A stretch of DNA of 64,000 bases, from the NCBI GenBank assembly GCA_028714495.1, contig JAQTMH010000002.1, positions 163,714-227,713 on the forward strand. The letters run 5' to 3'. A program made the translations under genes and the position numbers. Shown one piece after another: positions 11,860 to 61,007 of this stretch (within the stretch, counting starts at the first letter, position 1; every line of letters begins with the position of its first letter). This stretch comes from Patescibacteria group bacterium (lineage in GTDB: Bacteria; Patescibacteriota; Patescibacteriia; JAHIZJ01). The notes below the pieces were generated by a model. That model was not told the origin of the DNA. It saw nothing but the letters and a program-made list of their open reading frames with translations, and did no database searches.

Positions 11860-13095
11860 TTATTTTTGGGTTCCCAGAGTTACCTCGATGGTTTTAACTT
11901 CAGTGTCTCGCAATACTTCAAGTTTAACGCTATCGCCCGCCGAATAACTTAGAATTAGGTTGGTTAAATTGTTCGTTTCATCGACAGATAGGCTGCCGAC
12001 TTTCAAGATTATATCCCCTTTGGCCAAACCGGCCTTTTCAGCCGGACTATTGGTCAAAACCGCCGGCTGGTTTGCTTCCAAATCCCCATAAATCAACGCG
12101 CCGTTCTTTTTATTCTGGGAAAATAGACTGGCCACGTTTTCCGCCCGACCCAGATCAAGATAATAAACGCCTAATAACGGGCGAACTACTTGGTTATTTT
12201 TTAGCAGGCTGTTCAAGCCGCTTTGGATCTGATCGGCTGGAACCATCTGATTAGTCGGCCAATCGGCTGAAGCCACTATCCCGACAATTTCACTTGAGGC
12301 GTTAATAACAACGCTTCCTTGGTACTGGGCCGCTACTGGGTCTTTAATAAGCCAATGTTCATTGGAGGTGTCGCTCGACTGATAATATTCATCAGCCCGG
12401 GATGCGTCCGGCTGGTATTTTTGGATAAGCTTGGTCGGCCAAAGCATTGGTAAGGCTCCGCTGTTTTTTTTGATTAAGAAAATTTCTTGTCCAGCGGCAA
12501 TCTTATCTCTGGTCGCGAATTTATTTACCGTGAAATTTTTACCATTAATTTTTAAAAAGTACAAAGACGTGGCTGGATCAGCCATTATTTTTTCCACGGC
12601 GTATACCTCGCCACTTGAAGTAACGGCCACGTAAACTTGCTGTAAATCAGGCGTCGCCCACTTCGGTACCACCACCCAACCATCGCTAGTCACTAACAGG
12701 CCGGTTGATAACTGTTCCCAGGGATGATAAAGCGAAGCCCGCGGATCGGCCGCTGACTGATTTGTCTGTTTTTTAAATATTCCGACCAAGCCAGCTTGAG
12801 ACTGTTCAGCCAAATCCGATAATTTATTCGAGTCAATTTCGGTTTGGCGGTTTGTCTGGACAGTGGCAGTCCCCTGACTGGTATTTTGATCCGTAAAGAA
12901 GTTGTAGAAAAAATAACCACCAAAAAAACCCGAAAAAACACCAACAATAACGGCTAAAAGAATAATAAAAAGTCGTCCACTCTTAGGTGGCGGCCGATGT
13001 ATCTCGGTCAAGCTTTTATCATGATAGAGTTTGTCCAGTTCTTTGAGGCGTTTATTTTTTGGGGAGGTGGGTGTCGGTTCGATTTCCATAAACAT
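11860..13095 (-). CDS. Membrane-anchored trypsin-like (HtrA-family) domain plus a C-terminal PDZ domain; the catalytic His appears to be missing
   Basis: One TM helix is followed by a region alignable to HtrA protease-domain blocks (DGWVVV, YAVEKIMADPATSLYFLKI, DPVAAQYQGSVVINASSEIVGIV). The C-terminal PDZ reads GALIYG...AGLAKGDIILKVGS. There is no His where HtrA has NHV, and GNSGG is replaced by YQGSV. Confidence 0.55.
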   Translation of the reverse strand: MFMEIEPTPTSPKNKRLKELDKLYHDKSLTEIHRPPPKSGRLFIILLAVIVGVFSGFFGGYFFYNFFTDQNTSQGTATVQTNRQTEIDSNKLSDLAEQSQAGLVGIFKKQTNQSAADPRASLYHPWEQLSTGLLVTSDGWVVVPKWATPDLQQVYVAVTSSGEVYAVEKIMADPATSLYFLKINGKNFTVNKFATRDKIAAGQEIFLIKKNSGALPMLWPTKLIQKYQPDASRADEYYQSSDTSNEHWLIKDPVAAQYQGSVVINASSEIVGIVASADWPTNQMVPADQIQSGLNSLLKNNQVVRPLLGVYYLDLGRAENVASLFSQNKKNGALIYGDLEANQPAVLTNSPAEKAGLAKGDIILKVGSLSVDETNNLTNLILSYSAGDSVKLEVLRDTEVKTIEVTLGTQK

Positions 13096-13107
13096 TTATT
13101 ATTTATA

Positions 13108-13284
13108 GGACTTACGCGTTTGAGACAACCCCGGATCCGAGTCCGGGGGAGGAAAAATGCGAGGATTTTGCGAGGCGTAGTCAAACTACGACGAGTAAAA
13201 ACGTAGCATTTTGACAAAGAAATTGGCCAAAGCCGCTTTAGGATCGGGCTATGCCCGTCCGAAAAGCGGCAAGCGCGTAAGTCC
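13108..13284. repeat. MITE-like intergenic repeat, copy 1 (177 bp); its terminal inverted repeat is GGACTTACGCG, and each end is flanked by TA
   Basis: Near-identical to 45513-45672 apart from hairpin-loop indels. The ends ggacttacgcgtttgag and gcggcaagcgcgtaagtcc are inverted repeats. There are internal hairpins (cgtagtcaaactacg, gtcaaa..tttgac). TA occurs immediately outside both ends. Confidence 0.6.
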
Positions 13285-13291
13285 TAATTTG

Positions 13292-14053
13292 CTAGGCCCA
13301 ACGGGCGGTTATCAGCGTTAATATTAACACACTTAGACTGATTATTAAATACCTGACAACTACCGAGGCCTTTAGCTGCCCCAGCAGAGAATAGCGGCCT
13401 AAATTTATCGTGGTGTAATAAATTACCGTAAGGATAAAAGCGTTGACCAGCGCGGCTGAGGGTAAAAAACTTAGCGCCCAAAAAATTTCTCCGCAAACCA
13501 ATCCGCTCATCAGGGCAAAAAGCGCCGTCGCGCCGAAAGAAACCTTGCTGATCCAAATCGCCTGGAAGGTAAGCAGGGCCGAGATAATAAACATAGCCAA
13601 GGTCATCGCCCAGGCTGGCCAGCTCAGGTAGAGAATCAAACTAAAGCCGACGCTGCCCATAAGAAAAATAGCGATTAAATTCAGATAACTTGAAATATTT
13701 TGAAGGGCGTTGACCTGATATTTTTCCGTTCGAAAATTGTAGTAAAATATCTGCGTCAAATACAGCCCATTCAGGACTAAAGAACCGGCAATGACGATTT
13801 GCCTGGCTAGTTCTCCGGAAATGAAAAAAATGAAAAAGAATACTCCCGTATTTAAAACAGCGAGGGTGATAAAAAAGATATAGAGGATCCTACGAAGCCC
13901 TTTGGTCGATAGCCAGAGAAGGGTCAGGAATATAACCACAATAACTGCTCCCCAGAGATAAAAGAGATGTTCGGGAAAGCGCAATAAAGCCTCATAGGTT
14001 AAAACCAGGAATAAAGGCGTGGCGAGAGTGAGAATGCGTCTAATAAGAAGCAT
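13292..14053 (-). CDS. Polytopic membrane protein (hypothetical)
   Basis: 253 aa with about 7 hydrophobic helices. It starts a run of co-oriented envelope genes. Confidence 0.45.
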   Translation of the reverse strand: MLLIRRILTLATPLFLVLTYEALLRFPEHLFYLWGAVIVVIFLTLLWLSTKGLRRILYIFFITLAVLNTGVFFFIFFISGELARQIVIAGSLVLNGLYLTQIFYYNFRTEKYQVNALQNISSYLNLIAIFLMGSVGFSLILYLSWPAWAMTLAMFIISALLTFQAIWISKVSFGATALFALMSGLVCGEIFWALSFLPSAALVNAFILTVIYYTTINLGRYSLLGQLKASVVVRYLIISLSVLILTLITARWA

Positions 14054-36541: not shown

Positions 36542-36602
36542 TGGTATTGTTGTTAATGAATAATTTTATTTTTAGTCTCCGTGGGCGGGTCCATCCACCC
36601 TC

Positions 36603-36780
36603 GTAGGCGAGGATGGCCATCCTCGCCTACAATGGCCTAGGATGATCATCCTCGCCTACGGTGACGTTACCTCGTCATCGTAAGCGGGCAAACGTTTGCC
36701 CGCTTGCTGATGTATTATCGTCTTCGTAGGCGGACAAGCGCTTGTCCGCCTACAATGGCCTAGGATGATCATCCTAGGCC
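36603..36780. repeat. Cluster of REP-like perfect palindromes with GTAGGCG arms
   Basis: gtaggcgaggatggccatcctcgcctac (36603-36630), a chimeric ggcctaggatgatcatcctcgcctacgg, gcgggcaaacgtttgcccgc (36684-36703), gtaggcggacaagcgcttgtccgcctac (36726-36753), and ggcctaggatgatcatcctaggcc (36757-36780). Confidence 0.6.
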
Positions 36781-36794
36781 ACTTCCAAAATTAT

Positions 36795-42139: not shown

Positions 42140-42248
42140 GTAGGCGAACAAGCGCTTGTTCGCCTACGGAAATTATTACGTACCAAGTGTACGAAAAATT
42201 TATAAAAGCGTCAATATAATGCAGGCGAGGATGATCATCCTCGCCTAC
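42140..42248. repeat. REP-like palindromes with GTAGGCG arms flanking an AT-rich spacer (second cluster)
   Basis: gtaggcgaacaagcgcttgttcgcctac (42140-42167) and gcaggcgaggatgatcatcctcgcctac (42221-42248). Same family as the 36603-36780 cluster. Confidence 0.55.
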
Positions 42249-44715: not shown

Positions 44716-45483
44716 CTATTTTGATAATTTTGTTACTTGCACCAACTTTGTAAATTCTTCCAGGTTCAGGCTGGCTGTTCCAACCAGACCGCCAACCACA
44801 TACCTAAGTTTGAGAAAATCTCCGATGTTTCCAGAGTCAATGCTACCGCCGTAAATAATCCGAAAATTCTTCATTATCAGATCCAGCGGAAACAGGTCGA
44901 CTAAAGTTTGATGGATCAATTCCACCATCAAGGCGACTTCCGAAGGTTCAGCCGGTATTCCCGTGCCGATAGCCCAGATTGGTTCATAGGAAATGACTGT
45001 TGGTTGGTCGCCTTTAATATTTTTTAGGGCGGCTTTGAGCTGACTTATAACCTTGACCTCTTTCTTCCCGGCCTGGCGTTCATCAAGACTCTCTCCGACA
45101 CAGATAATAGGCGTAAGTCCGTGGCTAATGGCGCTTAACGCTTTTTTGTTGACCATATCATCTGTCTCGCCTAAATTCCGGCGGCGCTCTGAGTGGCCGA
45201 CAATGCAGTATCTGGCGCCAGCGTCTTTCAACATCCCAGCCGAAACACCTCCGGTCAATGCCCAGTTCTCTCCCCAGGCCATGTCCTGCGCTCCCAAAAT
45301 AAGCTTGGTCGGCTTTAATATCTTGCTCACTTCTATCAGTCCCAAGTGGGTCGGACAGACTACCACTTCGGCTTTTTCGGCAAAACGTTCAAGCTTGACC
45401 GCGAATTGCTTCGCTAAACCAACCTCTTCATTCAGCAAAAGGTTCATTTTCCAGTTGGCGATAATCAGCGGCTTTTTATCCAT
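44716..45483 (-). CDS. tpiA: Triosephosphate isomerase
   Basis: IIANWKMN, IVGHSERR and ISYEPIWAIGTG. Confidence 0.9.
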   Translation of the reverse strand: MDKKPLIIANWKMNLLLNEEVGLAKQFAVKLERFAEKAEVVVCPTHLGLIEVSKILKPTKLILGAQDMAWGENWALTGGVSAGMLKDAGARYCIVGHSERRRNLGETDDMVNKKALSAISHGLTPIICVGESLDERQAGKKEVKVISQLKAALKNIKGDQPTVISYEPIWAIGTGIPAEPSEVALMVELIHQTLVDLFPLDLIMKNFRIIYGGSIDSGNIGDFLKLRYVVGGLVGTASLNLEEFTKLVQVTKLSK

Positions 45484-45512
45484 AAATCACTTCTAATTAT
45501 ATCACACTTCTA

Positions 45513-45672
45513 GGACTTACGCGTTTGAGCCAAGTTCGAGGAAAAATGCGAGGATTTTGCGAGGCGTAGTCAAACTACGACGAGTAAAAACGAAGCATTT
45601 TGACGAAGAAATTGGCCAAAGCCGCTTGCTGACCCGGCTTCGCCGGGCCGAAAGCGGCAAGCGCGTAAGTCC
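45513..45672. repeat. MITE-like intergenic repeat, copy 2 (160 bp)
   Basis: Matches 13108-13284 (same TIR ggacttacgcg/cgcgtaagtcc and same internal core gcgaggattttgcgaggcgtagtcaaactacgacgagtaaaaacg). It is flanked by TA on both sides. Confidence 0.6.
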
Positions 45673-46601
45673 TAAATGGACCAGCGCCAGTTTTCAAATG
45701 TCCAGGTTATCAAGCCCTTAATCTCCTGAAAACGGCTTTCCGAGCTCTCGGAACCTAAAACAACTAAAATAACTTTGTGCCCTTGACCGTCGTCAGTTCG
45801 CACGACCAGACAATTACCCGCTTCATTGGTAAAGCCGGTCTTACTGCCGGTCATTCTGACAAAAGATTCAAAAAGCTTATTGGTGTTTGTAATCGTTACG
45901 ACTCGCCGGCTGCCGATTGGTTCAAAAAGGTATTCCGGCAAACTGGTGGCTTCGCTGATAAAAGAATTGTTAAAGGCGTAATTCGCGAGCTGGGCTATTT
46001 CCAGGGCGGTTGAAACATTGCCCGAGCTTAAACCCGTAACGTCGACAAATTTGGTATGGCTTAAACCCAGATCCTTGGCCCGCTGATTCATGGTTGCGAT
46101 AAAAGACTCTTCGCTTTTGCCGCTTAATCTGGCCAGGGCCTTGGTCGCGTTATTAGCCGAGCCAACCAAGCTGGCGTGAAAAAGGTCTCCCACGATCAGA
46201 TGTTCGCCATCTTTGAGCTCCAGGTTTCCGCCTTCAACCTGGTCCGCAGCGGTAAGCTCCGCTTCTTGGCCAAAATTGGGATTTGATTCGAGAAAGACTA
46301 GGGCAGTCATCAACTTTGTCAGGCTGGCGATCGGCCTGACTTCCTCAACATTCTTCTGGAATAATAAGCTTTGGCTGGCCGGATCAAAAACTAAAGCCGA
46401 ATGAGCCGTGGTCTCGATGCCCAAACTCTGGGATATTTTGGCCGGGGCCGGCGAGCGGTAAATTTCCGGCTTCAGAGAAATTGCCGGCACGATTTCCACC
46501 TGATGCTCGGTCGTTACTTCCGCGGCCAGGGGTCCAATCAAAAGATCCGGCTGCAATAACCGGCTAGTAAAAAATATTCCAATAATCAGTGAGCTAAGCA
46601 T
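45672..46601 (-). CDS. D-alanyl-D-alanine carboxypeptidase (peptidase S11, PBP5-like)
   Basis: SLTKLMT (SxxK), SGN and KTGFT (KTG) motifs, with an N-terminal signal/TM sequence. Confidence 0.8.
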   Translation of the reverse strand: MLSSLIIGIFFTSRLLQPDLLIGPLAAEVTTEHQVEIVPAISLKPEIYRSPAPAKISQSLGIETTAHSALVFDPASQSLLFQKNVEEVRPIASLTKLMTALVFLESNPNFGQEAELTAADQVEGGNLELKDGEHLIVGDLFHASLVGSANNATKALARLSGKSEESFIATMNQRAKDLGLSHTKFVDVTGLSSGNVSTALEIAQLANYAFNNSFISEATSLPEYLFEPIGSRRVVTITNTNKLFESFVRMTGSKTGFTNEAGNCLVVRTDDGQGHKVILVVLGSESSESRFQEIKGLITWTFENWRWSI

Positions 46602-47157
46602 TTTCTTCCTCGGGTTTTTCCTGGTTTAAAGTCAATACTTTTTCCAGCGTCTCATGGTGAGACAGCTTGTCGTAATCAGGCAGCTCATTGACCTCTCGGA
46701 TGCCTAAGTAGCGGATAAAATCAAAGGTGGTGGTATAAACCGTCAGCATCCGTTCCTTGTCTTCATTAGCCTCGACCAGGCCCTTGATCATCAGATTGCG
46801 CAAAATCAAGCTGCAGTTAACCCCGCGGATCTGCTCCAGCTCGGGCTTGGTAATCGGCCCGCGGTAAGTGACGATGGTCAGCGTTTCTAGAGACGGCTTG
46901 GTTAATTCGCCGAATTGCTCATCCCGCAGGTAAGCCTCGACTACCGAGCGGCTCTCGGGGCTGGTCATCAGCTGCGCCTTGGTGTGGTGGGTAACCAGCT
47001 GGATGCCGCGCTTGGAATCATTGTATTCTTTTTTTAGCTCTTCCAGGGCGGCTTTGACCTCCGCCTCCGCCGCGCCGGTCAGCTCGGCAATTTTACCGAG
47101 GCTTAAGGGCTTGGTCGCCACGAACAGGAGGCTTTCGAGTTTATTCTTGAGAGACAT
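46594..47157 (-). CDS. scpB: Segregation and condensation protein B
   Basis: Two winged-helix ScpB repeats (LESLLFVATKPLSLGKIAEL...). Start placed at the internal Met to limit the overlap with scpA; the ORF track extends to 47208. Confidence 0.7.
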   Translation of the reverse strand: MSLKNKLESLLFVATKPLSLGKIAELTGAAEAEVKAALEELKKEYNDSKRGIQLVTHHTKAQLMTSPESRSVVEAYLRDEQFGELTKPSLETLTIVTYRGPITKPELEQIRGVNCSLILRNLMIKGLVEANEDKERMLTVYTTTFDFIRYLGIREVNELPDYDKLSHHETLEKVLTLNQEKPEEENA

Positions 47158-47851
47158 GTTCTTCGTATGTCTTAATGGTAATTTCTTCAAACGTGCTTTT
47201 TTGAACAACCACGATGGTTTCTTGTTTAATGAGTTCGAGCAAGGCCAGAAAAGTCACGATAATGTCGGTCCGGGTTTTGGCCTGGTTGAGCAGAGAGCGA
47301 AAATCGGTCTGGGCTTGGCTGGCAATAAAATCTTTTATCTGGGCGATTTTTTCCTGGATTGAAATAGTCCGTTCGATGACCGCTTCAGGCAGGCTGATAA
47401 GCGGCTCAAGCCGGTTAATTATTCCCAGCATCATTTTACGAAGATCTTCAATTTCCAGACCCGCCGGCGGAGTGAATATGGGCTCTAAAAAGGCTCGGCT
47501 GACCTCCCGGGTGTAGGTGAAGCGCTTTTTCCGGATCAGCCGAAGCAGCCCTTTTGACGCCTCGAGATATTCCTTGTAAATCTTGAGTTGCTGCTCGAGA
47601 TCAATCTCGTCCTCCTCGGGCTGCAGGATCGGCAGCAAGGTCTTCGACTTGATCAAAAGAAGCTTGGCCGCCACGACCAAAAAATCTGCCAATTCTTCGG
47701 CTTTAATATTTTCAAGAGTTTCCAGGTGAGCCAGGTATTGATCGGTAACTTTGGCCAGCGAGACTGTGGTAATATCAAGCTTTTCCTCCTCAATCAGCTT
47801 CAGCAAGAGATCAAGCGGCCCTTCGAATTGCTCAAGGGTGATTTTGTACAT
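47141..47851 (-). CDS. scpA: Segregation and condensation protein A
   Basis: FEGPLDLLLKLIEEEKLDI N-terminal signature and a kleisin-like C-terminus. Confidence 0.75.
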   Translation of the reverse strand: MYKITLEQFEGPLDLLLKLIEEEKLDITTVSLAKVTDQYLAHLETLENIKAEELADFLVVAAKLLLIKSKTLLPILQPEEDEIDLEQQLKIYKEYLEASKGLLRLIRKKRFTYTREVSRAFLEPIFTPPAGLEIEDLRKMMLGIINRLEPLISLPEAVIERTISIQEKIAQIKDFIASQAQTDFRSLLNQAKTRTDIIVTFLALLELIKQETIVVVQKSTFEEITIKTYEEHVSQE

Positions 47852-52838: not shown

Positions 52839-54131
52839 CTAGGGCTTTAAACGATTAATGAGGCGCGGGAATGGAATAGTCTCGCGGATATGCTCCAGCC
52901 CGCAAATCCAGCGCACCAGCCGCTCCAAACCCAGGCCGAAACCCGAGTGCGGGAATGAACCATAGCGCCGTAAATCAAGATACCATTCGAAATCCTTGCG
53001 CGGGAGTTTGAATTCCTTGAGCCGCTTTTCCAAAAGCTTCAGATCATCTATTCTCTCTGACCCGCCGATAATTTCACCAAAGCCTTCTGGCGCCAGCAAA
53101 TCATCGCCCAGCGAGAGTTCGGGATCAGCCGGGTCAGGCTTCATGTAAAAGGCCTTGATCTTTGTCGGGAAGTGGGTGATGAAAACCGGCTTGTCAAATT
53201 GTTTCGAGAGAACCGTTTCTTCGTCGCCCCCAAAGTCATCTCCCCTTTTCATTTTTAAACCCGCCTTGATTAATCTGGTAACAGCCTCGTCATAGGTAAG
53301 GCGCGGGAAAGGAACTGCTACTTTTTCCAAAATCTTGGTATCTCGCTCAAGCAGTTTTAATTCCTCCCGCCTTTCAATCAAGATGTTTTGAACAACCTGG
53401 CTGACAAGCTCTTCCTGGATTTTCAAATTCTCTTCGAAATCCACAAAAGCCGCTTCGGCATCAAGCATCCAAAACTCAGTTAGGTGGCGCCGGGTCTTTG
53501 ATTTTTCCGCGCGGAAGGTCGGACCAAAATCATACACCCGGCCCAAAGCCGCGGCCGTGGCCTCGATATAGAGCTGGCCGGTCTGGGCCAGATAAGCTTT
53601 TGTGTCAAAATAGTCGGTGCTAAAAAGGGTGGTCGTGCCTTCGCAGGAAGTCGGGGTGAGAACTGGCGAATCAGTCAGGACAAATCCCCGTTCGCGAAAA
53701 AACTTCCTAAGTTGCCAAACCACTTCATCCCGCACTTTTAAAATCGCGGCCTGACGCGCTGAGCGCAGCCAAAGATGTCTATTGTCCATCAAAAACTCAG
53801 GGCCGTGCTCTTTCTTGGCAATCGGATATTCCTCAGCCAGCTGAATAATCTTCAGATCCTTTACCTCAAGTTCAAAACCGTAGGCAGAACGCTTATCCTC
53901 GTGGACCGTGCCAAAAAGCTCGATTGAGCTTTCCATGGTCAGTTTCCCGCAAGCCTGCCAAGTCTTTGAATCAACCTCTTTTTTGCTGATTACAGCCTGA
54001 ATCCGGCCGCTGCCATCCCGAAATTGGAGGAAATAAATACTGCCCGAAGAACGGACATTAAAAACCCAGCCCTTTAGGCTGACCTCTTTTTCTGGATACT
54101 TTGATACCTCGGAAAGCTGAATTAATGGCAT
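52839..54131 (-). CDS. asnS: Asparaginyl-tRNA synthetase (class IIb)
   Basis: FRAEKSKTRRHLTEFWMLDAEAAF closely matches AsnRS motif 2. The C-terminus reads GSFPHSGFGLGLERLV. Confidence 0.7.
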   Translation of the reverse strand: MPLIQLSEVSKYPEKEVSLKGWVFNVRSSGSIYFLQFRDGSGRIQAVISKKEVDSKTWQACGKLTMESSIELFGTVHEDKRSAYGFELEVKDLKIIQLAEEYPIAKKEHGPEFLMDNRHLWLRSARQAAILKVRDEVVWQLRKFFRERGFVLTDSPVLTPTSCEGTTTLFSTDYFDTKAYLAQTGQLYIEATAAALGRVYDFGPTFRAEKSKTRRHLTEFWMLDAEAAFVDFEENLKIQEELVSQVVQNILIERREELKLLERDTKILEKVAVPFPRLTYDEAVTRLIKAGLKMKRGDDFGGDEETVLSKQFDKPVFITHFPTKIKAFYMKPDPADPELSLGDDLLAPEGFGEIIGGSERIDDLKLLEKRLKEFKLPRKDFEWYLDLRRYGSFPHSGFGLGLERLVRWICGLEHIRETIPFPRLINRLKP

Positions 54132-54372
54132 ATAAAAAATCGCTATTTAGTGAATAAATTATAGCGATTTTCTGCGAAGAAGTCAAAAAGCAGAATATTT
54201 CACAATAATCATTTAAACATTTCGTTAAATGTTGTTGAACAACCAAATACTAAATATTCCAGAAAATAATATGCTGGGTATCAATAGGAAAATCAAATGC
54301 TCCATATTATGTACCAACTAAAGAAGATGAGGAATTCAACATTACTATTAATAATTTTGAATTAACCTTAAT

Positions 54373-54408
54373 GCTATCATGCTATATAGCATGATAGCAC
54401 ATGATAGC
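54373..54408. promoter_or_regulatory. 26-bp perfect AT-rich palindrome plus an extra half-site, a candidate operator upstream of asnS
   Basis: gctatcatgctatatagcatgatagc (54373-54398) followed by ac atgatagc. It lies in the 340-bp AT-rich spacer 5' of asnS on the minus strand. Confidence 0.35.
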
Positions 54409-54471
54409 GCCACAAAAATTTATGGCTTCAGTGCCGCGCTTGCTGGAAATATGCGGTGACATAATTTGGCG

Positions 54472-55074
54472 CTACAAATCAACACCCCTGGGATTTTCTT
54501 TATTCTTTTTTATTCGCGCAATCAAAACGCAAAAAATTACTACAATAACGGCTCCTAACAAGTTCCACATCAAGTCATCAGCCGTATCAAACAAATCCGT
54601 TATCCGGTGGGTGGGAAAAAGCTGATCTCCGATGTATTCTGATATTTCATATATAACCACTATCAGCATTGTTAGGCTGATAGACACCATATTAGTCAAC
54701 CAGCTCGGCAGTCGCAGTAAAGATTTTTTATGGAATTCGCTTAAGACCGCCCAGAACATGGCTGTCGGAGCCATTGAACCTACGAAATGAGCCAGCTTGT
54801 CCCACCAAAGTATCCGCCCAAAAAGATGCTGGAAATTGGCCAACCCATCGATCCAAATCCCGGCCGCCACCAGCCAAGCGATTATCCAAGGCAAGGCAAT
54901 TCCGCGGCGGCGCAGAGAAAAAAATATTATAAGAAAAATCCCCCCGCCAACAATGTTTGTTACCGATAAAGCCACTTGTCGCGGCCAGGTGTCGTATTTC
55001 GTCGCCAGCTCGATTACCAACAACACGACAAGTGAGACAAAAGCCATCGCCGTAAAAACGTCATTTCTCCGCAT
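54472..55074 (-). CDS. Polytopic membrane protein (hypothetical)
   Basis: 200 aa with 5-6 TM helices. Confidence 0.45.
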   Translation of the reverse strand: MRRNDVFTAMAFVSLVVLLVIELATKYDTWPRQVALSVTNIVGGGIFLIIFFSLRRRGIALPWIIAWLVAAGIWIDGLANFQHLFGRILWWDKLAHFVGSMAPTAMFWAVLSEFHKKSLLRLPSWLTNMVSISLTMLIVVIYEISEYIGDQLFPTHRITDLFDTADDLMWNLLGAVIVVIFCVLIARIKKNKENPRGVDL

Positions 55075-57751
55075 ATACTTTTTTTTGCTGCAAGAATAAA
55101 TATTTTAATAGCTCGATAAAAAGAATAACGAATACGACCACCGCTCCGATAATCAGCCAGTGCTCCAACGTCAGGGGAACCGTCTGCAGTACTTTTTGGA
55201 TTGGGCCGAGATACACAGCCGCGAATTGGAGTAACATTCCGCCCAACACCGCTATGATCAGCCAGGGGTTTGAAAAAGGATTTTGCTTAAATACGGATAC
55301 CCGGAGCGAGCGGCAGCTAAAAACGTAAATCAGCGAATCGATTCCGACCGAGGTAAAAGCTATGGTCCTGGCTAGATTCAAATCATCGGTTGTCTTCCAA
55401 AAGTAATAAAAAAGTCCGAGCGTCACTATCCCGGTAACAGCGCTGATCGTCCCAATCAGCGTTTTCATCTCAGTATCGAGAATGGACGCCTGACGGCGAA
55501 TCGGCCGCTCATCCATAATGTGTTTTTCTTCTGGTTCGACTGTCAGGGCCATATTGGGCAGGCCATCGCCGACCAGATTGATCCATAATATCTGCGCGGC
55601 CAGAAGCGGCAAGGGAATGCCGAGAAACAAGGCTCCGGCAATAATTATGACTTCGGAAAAGCTGTCCGACATAAGATAAAGCACAATCTTCCGGATATTT
55701 TCAAAAATTACGCGTCCCTGTTTCACCGCCGCGACAATAGTTTTAAAATTGTTGTCCAAAATAACGAGATTAGCCGTCTCTTTGGCAATGTCCGTGCCCG
55801 AACCGACTGCCACGCCGATATCAGCCGCTCGCAAAGCCGGCGCGTCATTGACGCCGTCGCCGGTCATCGCCACCACCTCCCCGGCTGCCTGCCAGGCATC
55901 GACAATCCGAAGCTTGTCCCGAGGCGTTACCCGGGCATAAACTGAAATATTCCTGACTCGCTTTTGGAGTTCGGTATTGTTCATTTTTGCCAGCCCGTCG
56001 CCGTCTAAAATGTTTTCCGCTCTGGCTGGCAAACCCAGTTCCTGGGCAATCGCCTGCGCGGTCAGCCGGTGATCGCCAGTAATCATCACCGTGCTGATAC
56101 CGGCCCTTTGGCACAGAGCAATCGTTTCTTTAGCTTCCTGCCTCAGGGGATCTTTGATGCCCATCAGACCGACAAAGGCGAAATTCTCATAGAGCGCCGG
56201 CGATTCCTGCAACTTCTTCATTTCAAGCGGTACGAATTTAAAAGCCAAGGCGATAATCCTCAAACCTTTGTTGCTCAAATGCTCATAGCGTCTGCGGATT
56301 CGTTCCCGCTGATGCGGCAAAAAATGATGGAGCTTGCCCTCGATATCGATCAGGCTCGACATTTCCAAAATCTTTTCAGGCGCGCCCTTGAGATAAACAA
56401 TGTTATGAACCTTGGTATCGCGGTGGAGCGTCATCATCATTTTTCGATCAGAACTGAATGGGATTGTATCAAGCCGGGGTTGGATTTTTTCGAGATTCCG
56501 GCGGTTCAGGCCGATCTGGCTGCCGGCCAAGATTAGAGCTTTCTCGGTCGGGTTGCCCAATATTACCCAATCTTTCAAATCGCTGTATTCATTTTCAATA
56601 ATGGCGTCATTGCTGAGCACACCGATTTTTAAGGCTCTCAAAAAACTCGACTGGTCGCCGGTTTCCTGCAAATGCGTTTTAAATCTATCATGACCGGCTT
56701 CCAAATCGTGATTATTGGTAATCACCCTGACCACCCTCATTTCTCCCTCGGTTAATGTCCCCGTCTTGTCCGTACAAATTACTGTTGTCGAACCCAGGGT
56801 TTCAGCCGCTACCAGCTTCCGCACCAGGGCGTTTTTCTTCAAAACCCGCTGCATCCCGATCGCCAATACCACTGTTACGCCCACAGCCAGACCTTCTGGC
56901 ACCGCTGCCACGGCTAAGGCTACGGAGGTGGTAAACATTTCCAAAAAACTATGCCCGACCAAAAGGCCGATAGCCAGAATTGCCAGGCTGACAATAAGTA
57001 TAAAACCGCCTATCAGCCTGCTCAGAGAGTCAAGCTTGGTTTGGAGCGGTGTTTGCTCTTCTTTGGTTTCCTTAATAAGCTTGGCGATTTGGCCCAGTTC
57101 GGTCCGAAGGCCGGTTTCACAAACTATTCCCGCGCCCGTGCCGCCAATGACAATCGTCCCCATAAAAGCCATATTCACCCGATCAGCCAAAACCAAGTCC
57201 GGGCCGAGAATTTGAGTTATTTTCGTCACCGGATTGGCTTCGCCCGTTAACCTGGCCTCGTTTATCCTTAAATTGCTCGCTTCAATCAGGCGCAAATCAG
57301 CCGGTATCTTGTCTCCGGGCCGTAACACGACCAAGTCGCCGGGTACTAATTCCTTTACCTCAACCAATTTATCCTCGTTGTCGCGAACCACGATTGTCTG
57401 GAATTTCACGATCTGGCGCAGTTTCTCCATCGCCTTCATGGCCCGGCGTTCCTGAAAAAATCCCACAATGACATTCAGAAAAACCGCCGCCAAAATCACG
57501 TACATATCAACCAAATCTTCCAGGAGCAAACTGATGCCCGCGGCCACCAGCAGAATATAAACCAGGGAATTTTTAAACTGCCTCAAAAAAACAATCAGGC
57601 CCGTGATCTTCTTCCCTTCGGGCAGGACATTCAAACCGTGTTGTTTTTGACGAAGACTGACCTCTCGATTGGTCAAACCTGTCTTCCGGGTCTTGAGCAA
57701 ATCAAAAACTTTTGGAAGGGCTAAATTATACCAAACAATATTGGTGGTCAT
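55061..57751 (-). CDS. P-type cation-transporting ATPase (P2-type, Ca2+/Mg2+-like)
   Basis: Phosphorylation motif ICTDKTGTLT, TGES-like actuator, hinge MITGDHRLTA, GDGVNDAPAL and 10 TM helices. Confidence 0.85.
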   Translation of the reverse strand: MTTNIVWYNLALPKVFDLLKTRKTGLTNREVSLRQKQHGLNVLPEGKKITGLIVFLRQFKNSLVYILLVAAGISLLLEDLVDMYVILAAVFLNVIVGFFQERRAMKAMEKLRQIVKFQTIVVRDNEDKLVEVKELVPGDLVVLRPGDKIPADLRLIEASNLRINEARLTGEANPVTKITQILGPDLVLADRVNMAFMGTIVIGGTGAGIVCETGLRTELGQIAKLIKETKEEQTPLQTKLDSLSRLIGGFILIVSLAILAIGLLVGHSFLEMFTTSVALAVAAVPEGLAVGVTVVLAIGMQRVLKKNALVRKLVAAETLGSTTVICTDKTGTLTEGEMRVVRVITNNHDLEAGHDRFKTHLQETGDQSSFLRALKIGVLSNDAIIENEYSDLKDWVILGNPTEKALILAGSQIGLNRRNLEKIQPRLDTIPFSSDRKMMMTLHRDTKVHNIVYLKGAPEKILEMSSLIDIEGKLHHFLPHQRERIRRRYEHLSNKGLRIIALAFKFVPLEMKKLQESPALYENFAFVGLMGIKDPLRQEAKETIALCQRAGISTVMITGDHRLTAQAIAQELGLPARAENILDGDGLAKMNNTELQKRVRNISVYARVTPRDKLRIVDAWQAAGEVVAMTGDGVNDAPALRAADIGVAVGSGTDIAKETANLVILDNNFKTIVAAVKQGRVIFENIRKIVLYLMSDSFSEVIIIAGALFLGIPLPLLAAQILWINLVGDGLPNMALTVEPEEKHIMDERPIRRQASILDTEMKTLIGTISAVTGIVTLGLFYYFWKTTDDLNLARTIAFTSVGIDSLIYVFSCRSLRVSVFKQNPFSNPWLIIAVLGGMLLQFAAVYLGPIQKVLQTVPLTLEHWLIIGAVVVFVILFIELLKYLFLQQKKVYAEK

Positions 57752-60476: not shown

Positions 60477-60619
60477 GTCATTTCTCCTTTGAAAAGAGCC
60501 TTGGTCAACAGCTGACTGCTCATCAGCCGGCTCATCTCACTTTGAGACGAGCACAATTAAATTAAGCTAATAATGCTGATTTGTCAACCCCAGACTAGTT
60601 TGCCCTTCAATGTGTTCAG

Positions 60620-60925
60620 GGGTGAAGGGGCGTCTCCTTGGTTGCCTTATGAATCCCTGACCCAGGATTCCGATCCAGGGGAAAGGTCTCCTACTCTATG
60701 GAGATGCTTCGTTTCACTCAGCAATTCAGGACAAGAATCCCTGAACGTAGTGAAGGGTCTCCTACTCCAGGGAGATGCTTCGTTTCACTCAGCAATACAG
60801 AACATGAATCCCTGACCCCGAGTCATATCGAGGGGGAAGGGTCTCACAATGATAAAAGTCGTTCTCGGTTAGGAGATCCTTCGGCCAGGCCTCAGGAATA
60901 CAGACCAAGTATCCCTGACCCCGGA
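60620..60925. repeat. Degenerate tandem repeat: 4 units with a 56-83 bp period
   Basis: Each unit starts g(g)gaagggtctc and ends gaatccctgac(cc). Units 2 and 3 are about 90% identical and include the hairpin tctcc-tactcYRg-ggaga. There are no unique-spacer/short-repeat CRISPR features. Confidence 0.5.
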
Positions 60926-61007
60926 CTCCCTGCGCCTCTCAGACCTAAACCCTTCAAAGACCTTTTTTATATTTGACTATCTTTTTCATCTGGAGCAAAA
61001 TATAAGC

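Follow-up and report, generated by a model that had tools for sequence, protein, structure and literature searches.

Two short repeats in a stretch of 64,000 nucleotides from a Patescibacteria group bacterium (assembly GCA_028714495.1, contig JAQTMH010000002.1, positions 163,714 to 227,713 of the forward strand) are very probably copies of a miniature inverted-repeat transposable element (MITE) of the IS701 type, with a 5-bp AT-rich target-site duplication. The whole stretch is here referred to as the window, and positions are counted from its first letter. The two copies, here named A and B, and their ends are located as follows.

13106..13286, + strand: MITE copy A, 181 nt with the terminal TA included; matched over its full length by the family profile (nhmmer, E = 5e-37)
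45511..45674, + strand: MITE copy B, 164 nt with the TA ends included; matched by the family profile (nhmmer, E = 3e-42)
13106..13122, + strand: left terminal inverted repeat of A (TAGGACTTACGCGTTTG); fits the end consensus of the MITEs and of the related insertion sequence (IS) and forms helix 1, which is sequence-invariant across the family
13270..13286, + strand: right terminal inverted repeat of A (CAAGCGCGTAAGTCCTA)
45511..45527, + strand: left terminal inverted repeat of B
45658..45674, + strand: right terminal inverted repeat of B; its last three bases, CTA, are the TAG stop of the minus-strand Peptidase_S11 gene

An original prediction, made from the window alone, had described two MITE-like copies with the ends ggacttacgcg...cgcgtaagtcc and a conserved core, and both are present at the sites it named. 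TA was seen on each side of both copies, as it had been described. The true ends include this TA, however, so that the boundaries 13108-13284 and 45513-45672 proposed at the time have to be extended to those given above. The classification as a MITE was borne out as well: the elements are short and non-coding with inverted ends, they belong to a dispersed family, an IS carries the same termini, and target duplications and a pair of empty and filled sites were found. All defining features of a MITE that were tested were thus present, and both tested features of an IS630/Tc1 element were absent.

A and B have the same orientation on the + strand and all four flanking genes lie on the minus strand. 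The copies have perfect 13-nt ends (TAGGACTTACGCG) in common, and the inverted repeat of the element matches at 16 of 17 positions with a single T/G difference. Within the 64 kb there are exactly four occurrences of the 11-mer GGACTTACGCG, each of them one of the inverted ends of A and B. With at most one mismatch it was found 5 times in the window compared to 0.68 expected, a number that none of 100 shuffles reached. A and B are 91% identical over 136 nt (blastn, E = 5e-44) with a 55-nt core that is identical between them, and the mean column identity of their alignment including the flanks is 88%. The minimum free energy of folding is -85.3 kcal/mol for copy A (z = -8.8 vs shuffles) and -77.7 kcal/mol for copy B (z = -8.6), respectively. 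With 181 and 164 nt both copies are below the ~300-500 bp that delimit a MITE, and the sole open reading frames (ORFs) across them are 69-aa frames running out of the flanks. A third copy was not found within the window, either by blastn-short or with an nhmmer profile built from 23 family members; a weak nhmmer match within a long ORF, at 57641-57695 (E = 0.016), was taken as chance.

To place the repeats in a wider context, metagenome contigs were scanned with the terminus pattern TAGGACTTACGCGYTTGMS, which yielded at least 120 loci (numbered with the prefix L). All family counts given below are among the matches listed. After the loci had been re-searched for the 11-mer without TA in order to pair the ends, 74 inverted pairs were obtained, 62 of them 52-236 bp and 12 of them 1044-1127 bp apart. 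Approximately 35 metagenomic loci fit a profile of the interior of the window element (nhmmer). An alignment of 21 full-length metagenomic copies together with A and B (23 sequences) identified B as the canonical architecture, consisting of the termini, helix 2, a long interrupted central hairpin and a 3' hairpin; B aligns column for column with metagenomic copies of ~166 nt.

The homologous copies are situated between unrelated genes on many Patescibacteria contigs and occur in both orientations. All family copies examined were intergenic, usually at most 15 bp from a flanking ORF and in many cases this close to the ORFs on both sides. At least 7 MITE copies were spread over 4 contigs of one metagenome-assembled genome labelled 'Patescibacteria group bacterium' (MFA48184xx to MFA48192xx), and another copy was present on contigs of Candidatus Yanofskybacteria. 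Exact scans with a 26-mer and a 25-mer of the core gave no match in 185,579 species genomes, and a core 22-mer gave none in the metagenome collection. The core variant of the window is therefore private to its lineage.

Additionally, the terminus scan returned other length classes (~100, 130 and 215 nt) that carry the same termini, with interiors unrelated to the window family. These were a class of ~132 nt (L014, L064, L091, L102, L103, L111 and L121), one of ~217 nt (L011, L029, L116 and L120) and one of 101 nt (L031 and L087). Since the termini are the same and the interiors unrelated, one IS terminus has given rise to several MITE families.

The 12 elements of 1044-1127 bp represent the autonomous partner. 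Each contained one ORF of ~322-328 aa, one of which (328 aa) has a TTG start. The product matched the NCBIfam model NF049921 'IS701 family transposase' with 350.9 and 347.2 bits (cut-off 250) and exceeded the cut-offs of the Pfam families DDE_5, DDE_Tnp_1 and DDE_Tnp_2. The best other transposase matches were the IS4 and IS1634 models, all below their cut-offs. The catalytic region FEQRWNIEEFHRGIK reads F-x2-R-x3-E-x6-K (translation ...HFEQRWNIEEFHRGIKQ...); most IS701 members have a YREK motif without the tyrosine (PMC2266710), and the partner transposase is alike in this respect. IS and MITEs agreed in their end consensus, TAGGACTTACGCGTTTGC for the IS (24 ends) and TAGGACTTACGCGtTTG for the MITEs (124 ends), with the 17-nt termini TAGGACTTACGCGYTTG common to both. 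Beyond these termini no similarity between the interiors of MITE and IS was detected by nhmmer. The original prediction had proposed to look for an autonomous IS630/Tc1-family transposase with matching ends. Such an enzyme does exist in the metagenomic elements, but it belongs to the IS701 family and not to IS630/Tc1.

The transposase family comprised 2,704 members at E <= 1e-30, nearly all of them on contigs of 1.0-1.5 kb, as is expected for a collapsed multi-copy repeat. A full-length IS was located between gdh and trpS in Parcubacteria CG1_02_44_65 / Candidatus Gribaldobacteria, and the UniRef name of the Gribaldobacteria product (PIX02827.1 / OIO50667.1) is IS701 family transposase. The nearest plasmid-borne transposases were 40-42% identical and came from Gloeocapsa and Piscirickettsia, with one annotated as 'IS701-like ISMesi2 family' among them; 121 of the matching records were from Acinetobacter. 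Candidatus Methanoperedens and an uncultured archaeon have annotated transposases (P0405 and P0408, in the cluster of P0309) with ~65% identity to the IS701-type enzyme of Patescibacteria, which hints at a spread of this IS group across domains.

Target sites were analyzed for 60 non-redundant MITEs from the terminus scan in comparison to shuffled flanks. A perfect 5-bp direct repeat was present right outside the TA...TA in 27 of the 60 elements (shuffle mean 0.85, maximum 4), and 9 further elements matched at four of five positions. No other repeat length or offset gave a signal, save for the inner 3 bp that are implied by the 5-bp repeat. The 31 perfect duplications represented 25 different 5-mers with 86% A+T, and hence many independent insertions into AT-rich targets.

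The original prediction had interpreted the TA as the target-site duplication, which is refuted. Of the 144 metagenomic ends, 138 had the TA; it was part of the scan pattern and thus present at each selected end by construction, and the partner ends were searched without it. When treated as a 2-bp duplication, TA was observed 54 times compared to 54.2 expected in shuffled flanks, as it is nearly invariant. The TA belongs to the inverted repeat, as its outermost base pair step, and is not a duplication.

The same follows from the comparison of empty and filled sites that had been proposed as a check. The filled locus L096 reads ...TTGCT TGTTA / TAGGACTT...AAGTCCTA / TGTTT AATTC..., and the corresponding empty site in L029, found by a search with simulated excision, reads ...TTTGCT TGTTT AATTC..., i.e. 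with one TGTTT and no TA at the junction. This pair shows the mobility of the element, the duplication of 5 bp and the TA as part of the element; the TA flanks do not behave as a duplication. In a second pair L040 is filled and L139 is a site without the element, but the two are too diverged for a clean junction. Further empty sites were not found: L128 (a relative of L036) and L142 (the same strain as L020) are filled, the Yanofskybacteria loci L132-L138 stop short of the site, and L140 (a relative of L019) is too short.

The sequences adjoining the two window copies are these.

13101..13105: left duplication copy of A, ATTTA
13287..13291: right duplication copy of A, ATTTG
45506..45510: left flank of B, ACTTC; a duplication is expected here and none is recognisable
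45675..45679: right flank of B, AATGG; encodes the last residues of Peptidase_S11

The duplications of A and B are decayed or rearranged. Among the IS copies, those without a 5-bp duplication were L109, L010, L061, L037, L094, L122, L099, L119, L071 and L015. Chimeric flanks of ~1-kb repeats in short-read assemblies, or recombination between copies, may account for the missing IS duplications.

The interior of the element turned out to be branched. The following parts were distinguished.

45529..45616, + strand: central domain of B, in which helix 2 closes a long interrupted hairpin at 45538-45604 (RNAalifold)
45529..45537 and 45608..45616, + strand: helix 2 of B, GCCAAGTTC paired with GAAATTGGC
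45621..45658, + strand: 3' hairpin of B (GCCGCTTG ... AAGCGGC; its GC-rich inner stem is variable)
13232..13270, + strand: 3' hairpin of A, inner stem CGGGC-TAT-GCCCG; homologous to 45621-45658 with a different stem
13129..13148, + strand: extra GC hairpin CCCCGGA-TCCGAG-TCCGGGG of 20 nt, in copy A only, which interrupts the family helix 2

Two GC hairpin inserts had been proposed as the main difference between the copies. Only the one at 13129-13148 is an insert, missing from B and from all 21 aligned metagenomic copies; for the other, the two copies have homologous hairpins whose stems have diverged (13232-13270 vs 45621-45658). The inner stem of this 3' hairpin varies in sequence between copies while its pairing is kept.

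The RNAalifold consensus of the 23 sequences contained 52 pairs, 28 of which showed compensatory changes. Altogether 95.2% of cells were paired compared to 84.6% in column shuffles, and none of 500 shuffles reached the observed value. In slid controls, where the partners were moved by 1-3 columns, 27-44% were paired and 9-13 pairs were changed on both sides, compared to 28 in the consensus. Helices 2-5 accounted for 21 pairs with compensatory changes and every inner helix covaries. The terminal helix showed no covariation at all; its sequence is therefore under constraint, as would be expected of a binding site for the transposase. This covarying branched interior is the one unexpected feature that goes beyond an ordinary MITE.

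The + strand was predicted to be ~10 kcal/mol more stable than its complement in all 23 copies, and the inner helices contained 39 G-U pairs compared to 10 A-C mismatches. This strand asymmetry is suggestive only, since the + strand served for the structure prediction, the copies have a common ancestry and one column contributes nine of the G-U cells. Conserved unpaired motifs were GAGG and GAAGAAATTGGCCAAAG, the latter partly paired. With respect to co-directional neighbours, 10 copies (A and B included) were antisense and 3 sense, a skew that is not significant (p ~0.09; 8 to 3 without the window copies). A search with Rfam 15 at the gathering score returned only 3 tRNAs for the window, and nothing for 13050-13340 even at E <= 10.

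Extra internal GC hairpins of 15-28 nt were observed at varying positions in L040 (10449-10650), L005 (9735-9973), L008 (5868-6035) and the window (13129-13148), for example CCCGCC-N3-5-GGCGGG and GTCGCC-TCAT-CGGCGAC. They could originate from template switching or represent a separate family of mini-palindromes. The motif CCGCC-N3-6-GGCGG had a single occurrence in the window, not above the chance level.

Both copies are tightly embedded between genes.

11860..13095, - strand: gene of a PDZ-domain S1C-type protease (PF13180, PF17820), downstream of A
13292..14053, - strand: gene of a DUF5656 membrane protein, upstream of A
44716..45483, - strand: tpiA, downstream of B; the first gene of an array of tpiA, class-II aldolase, pilin and GAPDH
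45672..46601, - strand: gene of a D-Ala-D-Ala carboxypeptidase (Peptidase_S11), upstream of B

The DUF5656 gene stops at 13292 and the ATG of the protease gene is at 13095, and copy A fills 181 of the 196 bp in between; the ATG is 11 nt (10 intervening bases) and the stop 6 nt (5 intervening bases) away. The distance from B to the ATG of tpiA is 28 nt (27 intervening bases). On its other side B has become part of a gene, as the TAG stop of Peptidase_S11 (45672-45674) is the reverse complement of the CTA that ends the copy. Prior to the insertion of B, a TGA in the flank probably terminated this protein, making it one or two residues longer.

These ORF positions agree with the prediction that both copies sit just upstream of minus-strand gene starts, those of the PDZ gene and the tpiA array. 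A placement in promoter regions describes only half of the situation: each copy is upstream of the next gene, but equally it lies immediately downstream of the preceding one. Scans for consensus promoters and terminators around A and B revealed nothing relevant. By eye, an extended -10-like sequence (TGTGATATAAT, 45496-45506, minus strand) can be recognised between B and tpiA with a spacing off consensus. Likewise outward-facing -35-like hexamers (TTGGCT/TTGTCT), again off consensus in their spacing and missed by the scans, are located 15 nt from the left terminus. It is speculative that a predicted structure of about -80 kcal/mol between two cistrons, perhaps together with an outward -35-like hexamer, might affect the neighbouring genes as a side effect. 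An influence on expression or an encoded small RNA, as raised in the original prediction, may exist but gained no support from these scans or from Rfam; the interior does, however, have a covarying fold.

The window encodes TpiA and the PDZ protease under the records MDD5342210.1 and MDD5342178.1. In the independent Logan assemblies of SRR22315508 and SRR22315509 both sites were filled with identical sequence, and contigs ended inside the element. These ends were considered as a sign of more copies and rejected, since the 55-nt core identical between A and B explains the break.

The sole close relative on record is GCA_028717285.1, whose TpiA is 96% identical; the next TpiA is 54% identical. 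At exactly the site of B it carries an element whose flanks and both ends agree with those of the window copy, so that B inserted before the two lineages diverged and was remodelled afterwards. The body of the relative's copy is 239 nt including TA (L005, 9735-9973), half of its central hairpin is replaced by sequence resembling another subtype of the family, and three extra GC hairpins are present. The remodelling involved indels and probably exchange with other family members. An orthologue of the PDZ protease from GCA_028717285.1 was not returned; the next matches after the window protein were ~50% identical. Taken together, A and B look like old, fixed insertions in a chromosome of the Patescibacteria, also known as the candidate phyla radiation (CPR).

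A stretch of 1.57 kb next to this site (window 45618-47190, L005 8219-9791), which covers scpB, Peptidase_S11 and the right part of B, is 99.2% identical between the two lineages. Its flanks of 7.3 kb and 1 kb are 95.7-95.8% identical, and the 99.2% stretch suggests a recent recombination between the lineages. In addition, the relative has an AT-rich insertion of 874 bp between scpA and scpB (L005 7345-8218) that is absent from the window, where the site corresponds to 47173-47190. The insertion is flanked by an 18-bp direct repeat (TTGAAGAAATTACCATTA), and its ORFs of 92 and 174 aa had no Pfam match.

Several observations weigh against the interpretation of A and B as IS701-type MITEs. Just two copies were seen for the source genome, within the 64-kb window, B is syntenic in the only close relative and no insertion polymorphism was seen at the window sites. 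The duplication is imperfect at A (4/5) and unrecognisable at B (1/5), and only 2 of the 12 full-length IS copies are bordered by one. The length of 5 bp found here contrasts with the 4 bp typical of the IS701 family (PMC2266710), and a purely selfish element would not require the strong covariation of the interior. The synteny of B, together with the covarying multi-helix fold (28 of 52 pairs with compensatory changes, 95% of cells paired) and the better folding of the + strand by ~10 kcal/mol in 23 of 23 copies, would also suit a regulatory RNA of conserved structure, or a small-RNA gene, that is not mobile and precedes the PDZ-protease gene and the glycolytic operon, its inverted ends being the closing helix. 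We consider this highly improbable. Such an RNA would not be expected between unrelated genes on many contigs in both orientations, with diverse 5-bp duplications and one empty allele, nor with a closing helix identical to the ends of a transposase-encoding IS. Moreover, half of the central hairpin is gone from the relative's B and three hairpins have been added, helix 2 is interrupted in A, Rfam gave no match at E <= 10 and the simple scans gave no promoter or terminator. Even less credible is a Tc1/mariner- or IS630-type MITE that duplicates TA. The TA at both ends of A and B and at 138 of 144 metagenomic ends, as well as a size and an inverted-repeat length typical of IS630-derived MITEs, would be in line with it. 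Yet TA, counted as a duplication, is no more frequent than in shuffled flanks (54 vs 54.2), a 5-bp repeat lies outside of it in 27 of 60 elements, the empty junction of L029 lacks it, and the elements with the same ends encode an IS701-family transposase instead of an IS630 one.

A different question is whether the MITE, with its IS701-type origin as above, has in addition an interior that is selected for function as RNA or single-stranded DNA, so that the fold is not a by-product of palindromic sequence. Compensatory changes in all inner helices next to termini that are constrained in sequence argue for this, as do the excess of G-U over A-C (39 to 10), the consistent strand asymmetry in stability, the conserved unpaired motifs and the orientation skew of 10 to 3. 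However, this skew is not significant, the G-U excess is biased by the + strand prediction and by few inherited columns, and the copies are related by descent, so that the counts are not independent events. Disruption of helices is also tolerated in single copies (A and the relative's B), and hairpin-templated mutation or repair in palindromic DNA can yield apparent compensatory changes without selection. We therefore regard a selected interior as possible but on balance unlikely; candidate roles would be an intercistronic insulator, an RNase target, an mRNA stabiliser or a transposition enhancer. It is rather doubtful that the family carries a selected strand-specific three-way-junction module which is tolerated or exploited between Patescibacteria genes. 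Such a putative module could serve as an intercistronic insulator, a processing site, or an antisense or small RNA. If this were true, genomes almost without intergenic space would harbour the elements as mobile regulatory cassettes rather than as inert selfish DNA.

For the IS701-type MITEs the following mode of spread is probable. The DDE transposase of the 1.04-1.13 kb IS701-family IS would bind the 17-nt termini and move the ~165-nt MITE, which is unable to move on its own, in trans. The element inserts into AT-rich 5-bp targets, which are then duplicated and which in these compact genomes mostly lie in short intergenic spacers. As their termini are intact, A and B would presumably still be substrates if the enzyme were present.

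The parent IS is a member of the IS701 family, in the branch with small transposases that also includes ISAba11 and ISMesi2-like elements. Elements of this type are ~1.1 kb in size and encode a transposase of ~320 aa, and the partners found here are alike with 1.04-1.13 kb and 322-328 aa. They differ by their Patescibacteria hosts and by an identity of only 40-42% to the plasmid-borne relatives. ISAba11 itself makes 5-bp duplications. It measures 1,101 bp (PMC7760358) and has been classed as a member of the IS701 family (PMC9771954). IS701 elements mostly generate 4-bp duplications and the 'emerging families' as a group ~5 bp; the 5 bp of the MITEs, shown by only 2 of the 12 full-length IS copies, would lie within the range of 4-5 bp for IS701 and related families (PMC2266710).

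As a MITE, the window family resembles MITEAba12 of Acinetobacter, which shows the same traits and has merely the inverted repeats in common with its parent IS (PMC6382973). Correia/NEMIS of Neisseria, RUP of Streptococcus pneumoniae and Nezha of cyanobacteria are likewise non-coding elements of 100-250 bp whose interior is unrelated to the IS. Correia and RUP duplicate TA, and RUP has been linked to IS630. Classical MITEs are intergenic as well, with strong hairpins, length subfamilies that have one terminus in common and possible side effects on transcription. The window family differs from them in its parent family, its host phylum and a branched covarying interior instead of a simple long palindrome. 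Repetitive extragenic palindromes (REPs) and the bacterial interspersed mosaic elements (BIMEs) are also short, GC-rich, intergenic and hairpin-forming. The window element is set apart from these by long inverted ends identical to those of an IS with a DDE transposase and by its target duplications; REPs have no such ends or duplications and are linked to Y1 transposases (RAYT).

A full-text literature search did not return a paper on MITEs in Patescibacteria/CPR, and the MITE family therefore seems undescribed. The ultra-small Patescibacteria have genomes of ~1 Mb in which the spacers are very short, and little mobile DNA is usually attributed to them. Here, a MITE family in several length variants with an IS701-type parent is spread across many groundwater Patescibacteria, including Yanofskybacteria, Gribaldobacteria and unclassified lineages. 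Insertions occur right at gene boundaries and in one case supply the stop codon of a gene. Such repeats break short-read assemblies and may be mis-annotated as small ORFs. At the same time, the copies represent markers for strain-level comparison and the covarying fold is a testable lead on an action at the level of RNA or single-stranded DNA.

Other repeats were present in the window as well. Clusters of perfect loop-less GC-rich palindromes of 24-30 nt, e.g. GTAGGCGGACAAGCGCTTGTCCGCCTAC and AGGCGAGGATGATCATCCTCGCCTAC, were located at 36597-36782 and 42140-42248. Both regions are intergenic, one of them adjoining tRNA-Glu, and the palindromes resemble a family of REP-like repeats that has no relation to the MITE. 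At 60681-60923, within a 530-bp spacer (60477-61007), there are two to three tandem-like units of ~71 nt with 79-91% identity. Their sequence is GAAAGGTCTCCTACTC.ATGGAGATGCTTCGTTTCACTCAGCAAT.CAG.ACA.GAATCCCTGA, for which Rfam gave no match. Finally, the 340-bp spacer 54131-54472 contained a perfect 28-nt palindrome at 54372-54399 (TGCTATCATGCTAT/ATAGCATGATAGCA) that is kept in the relative (L005 129-156).

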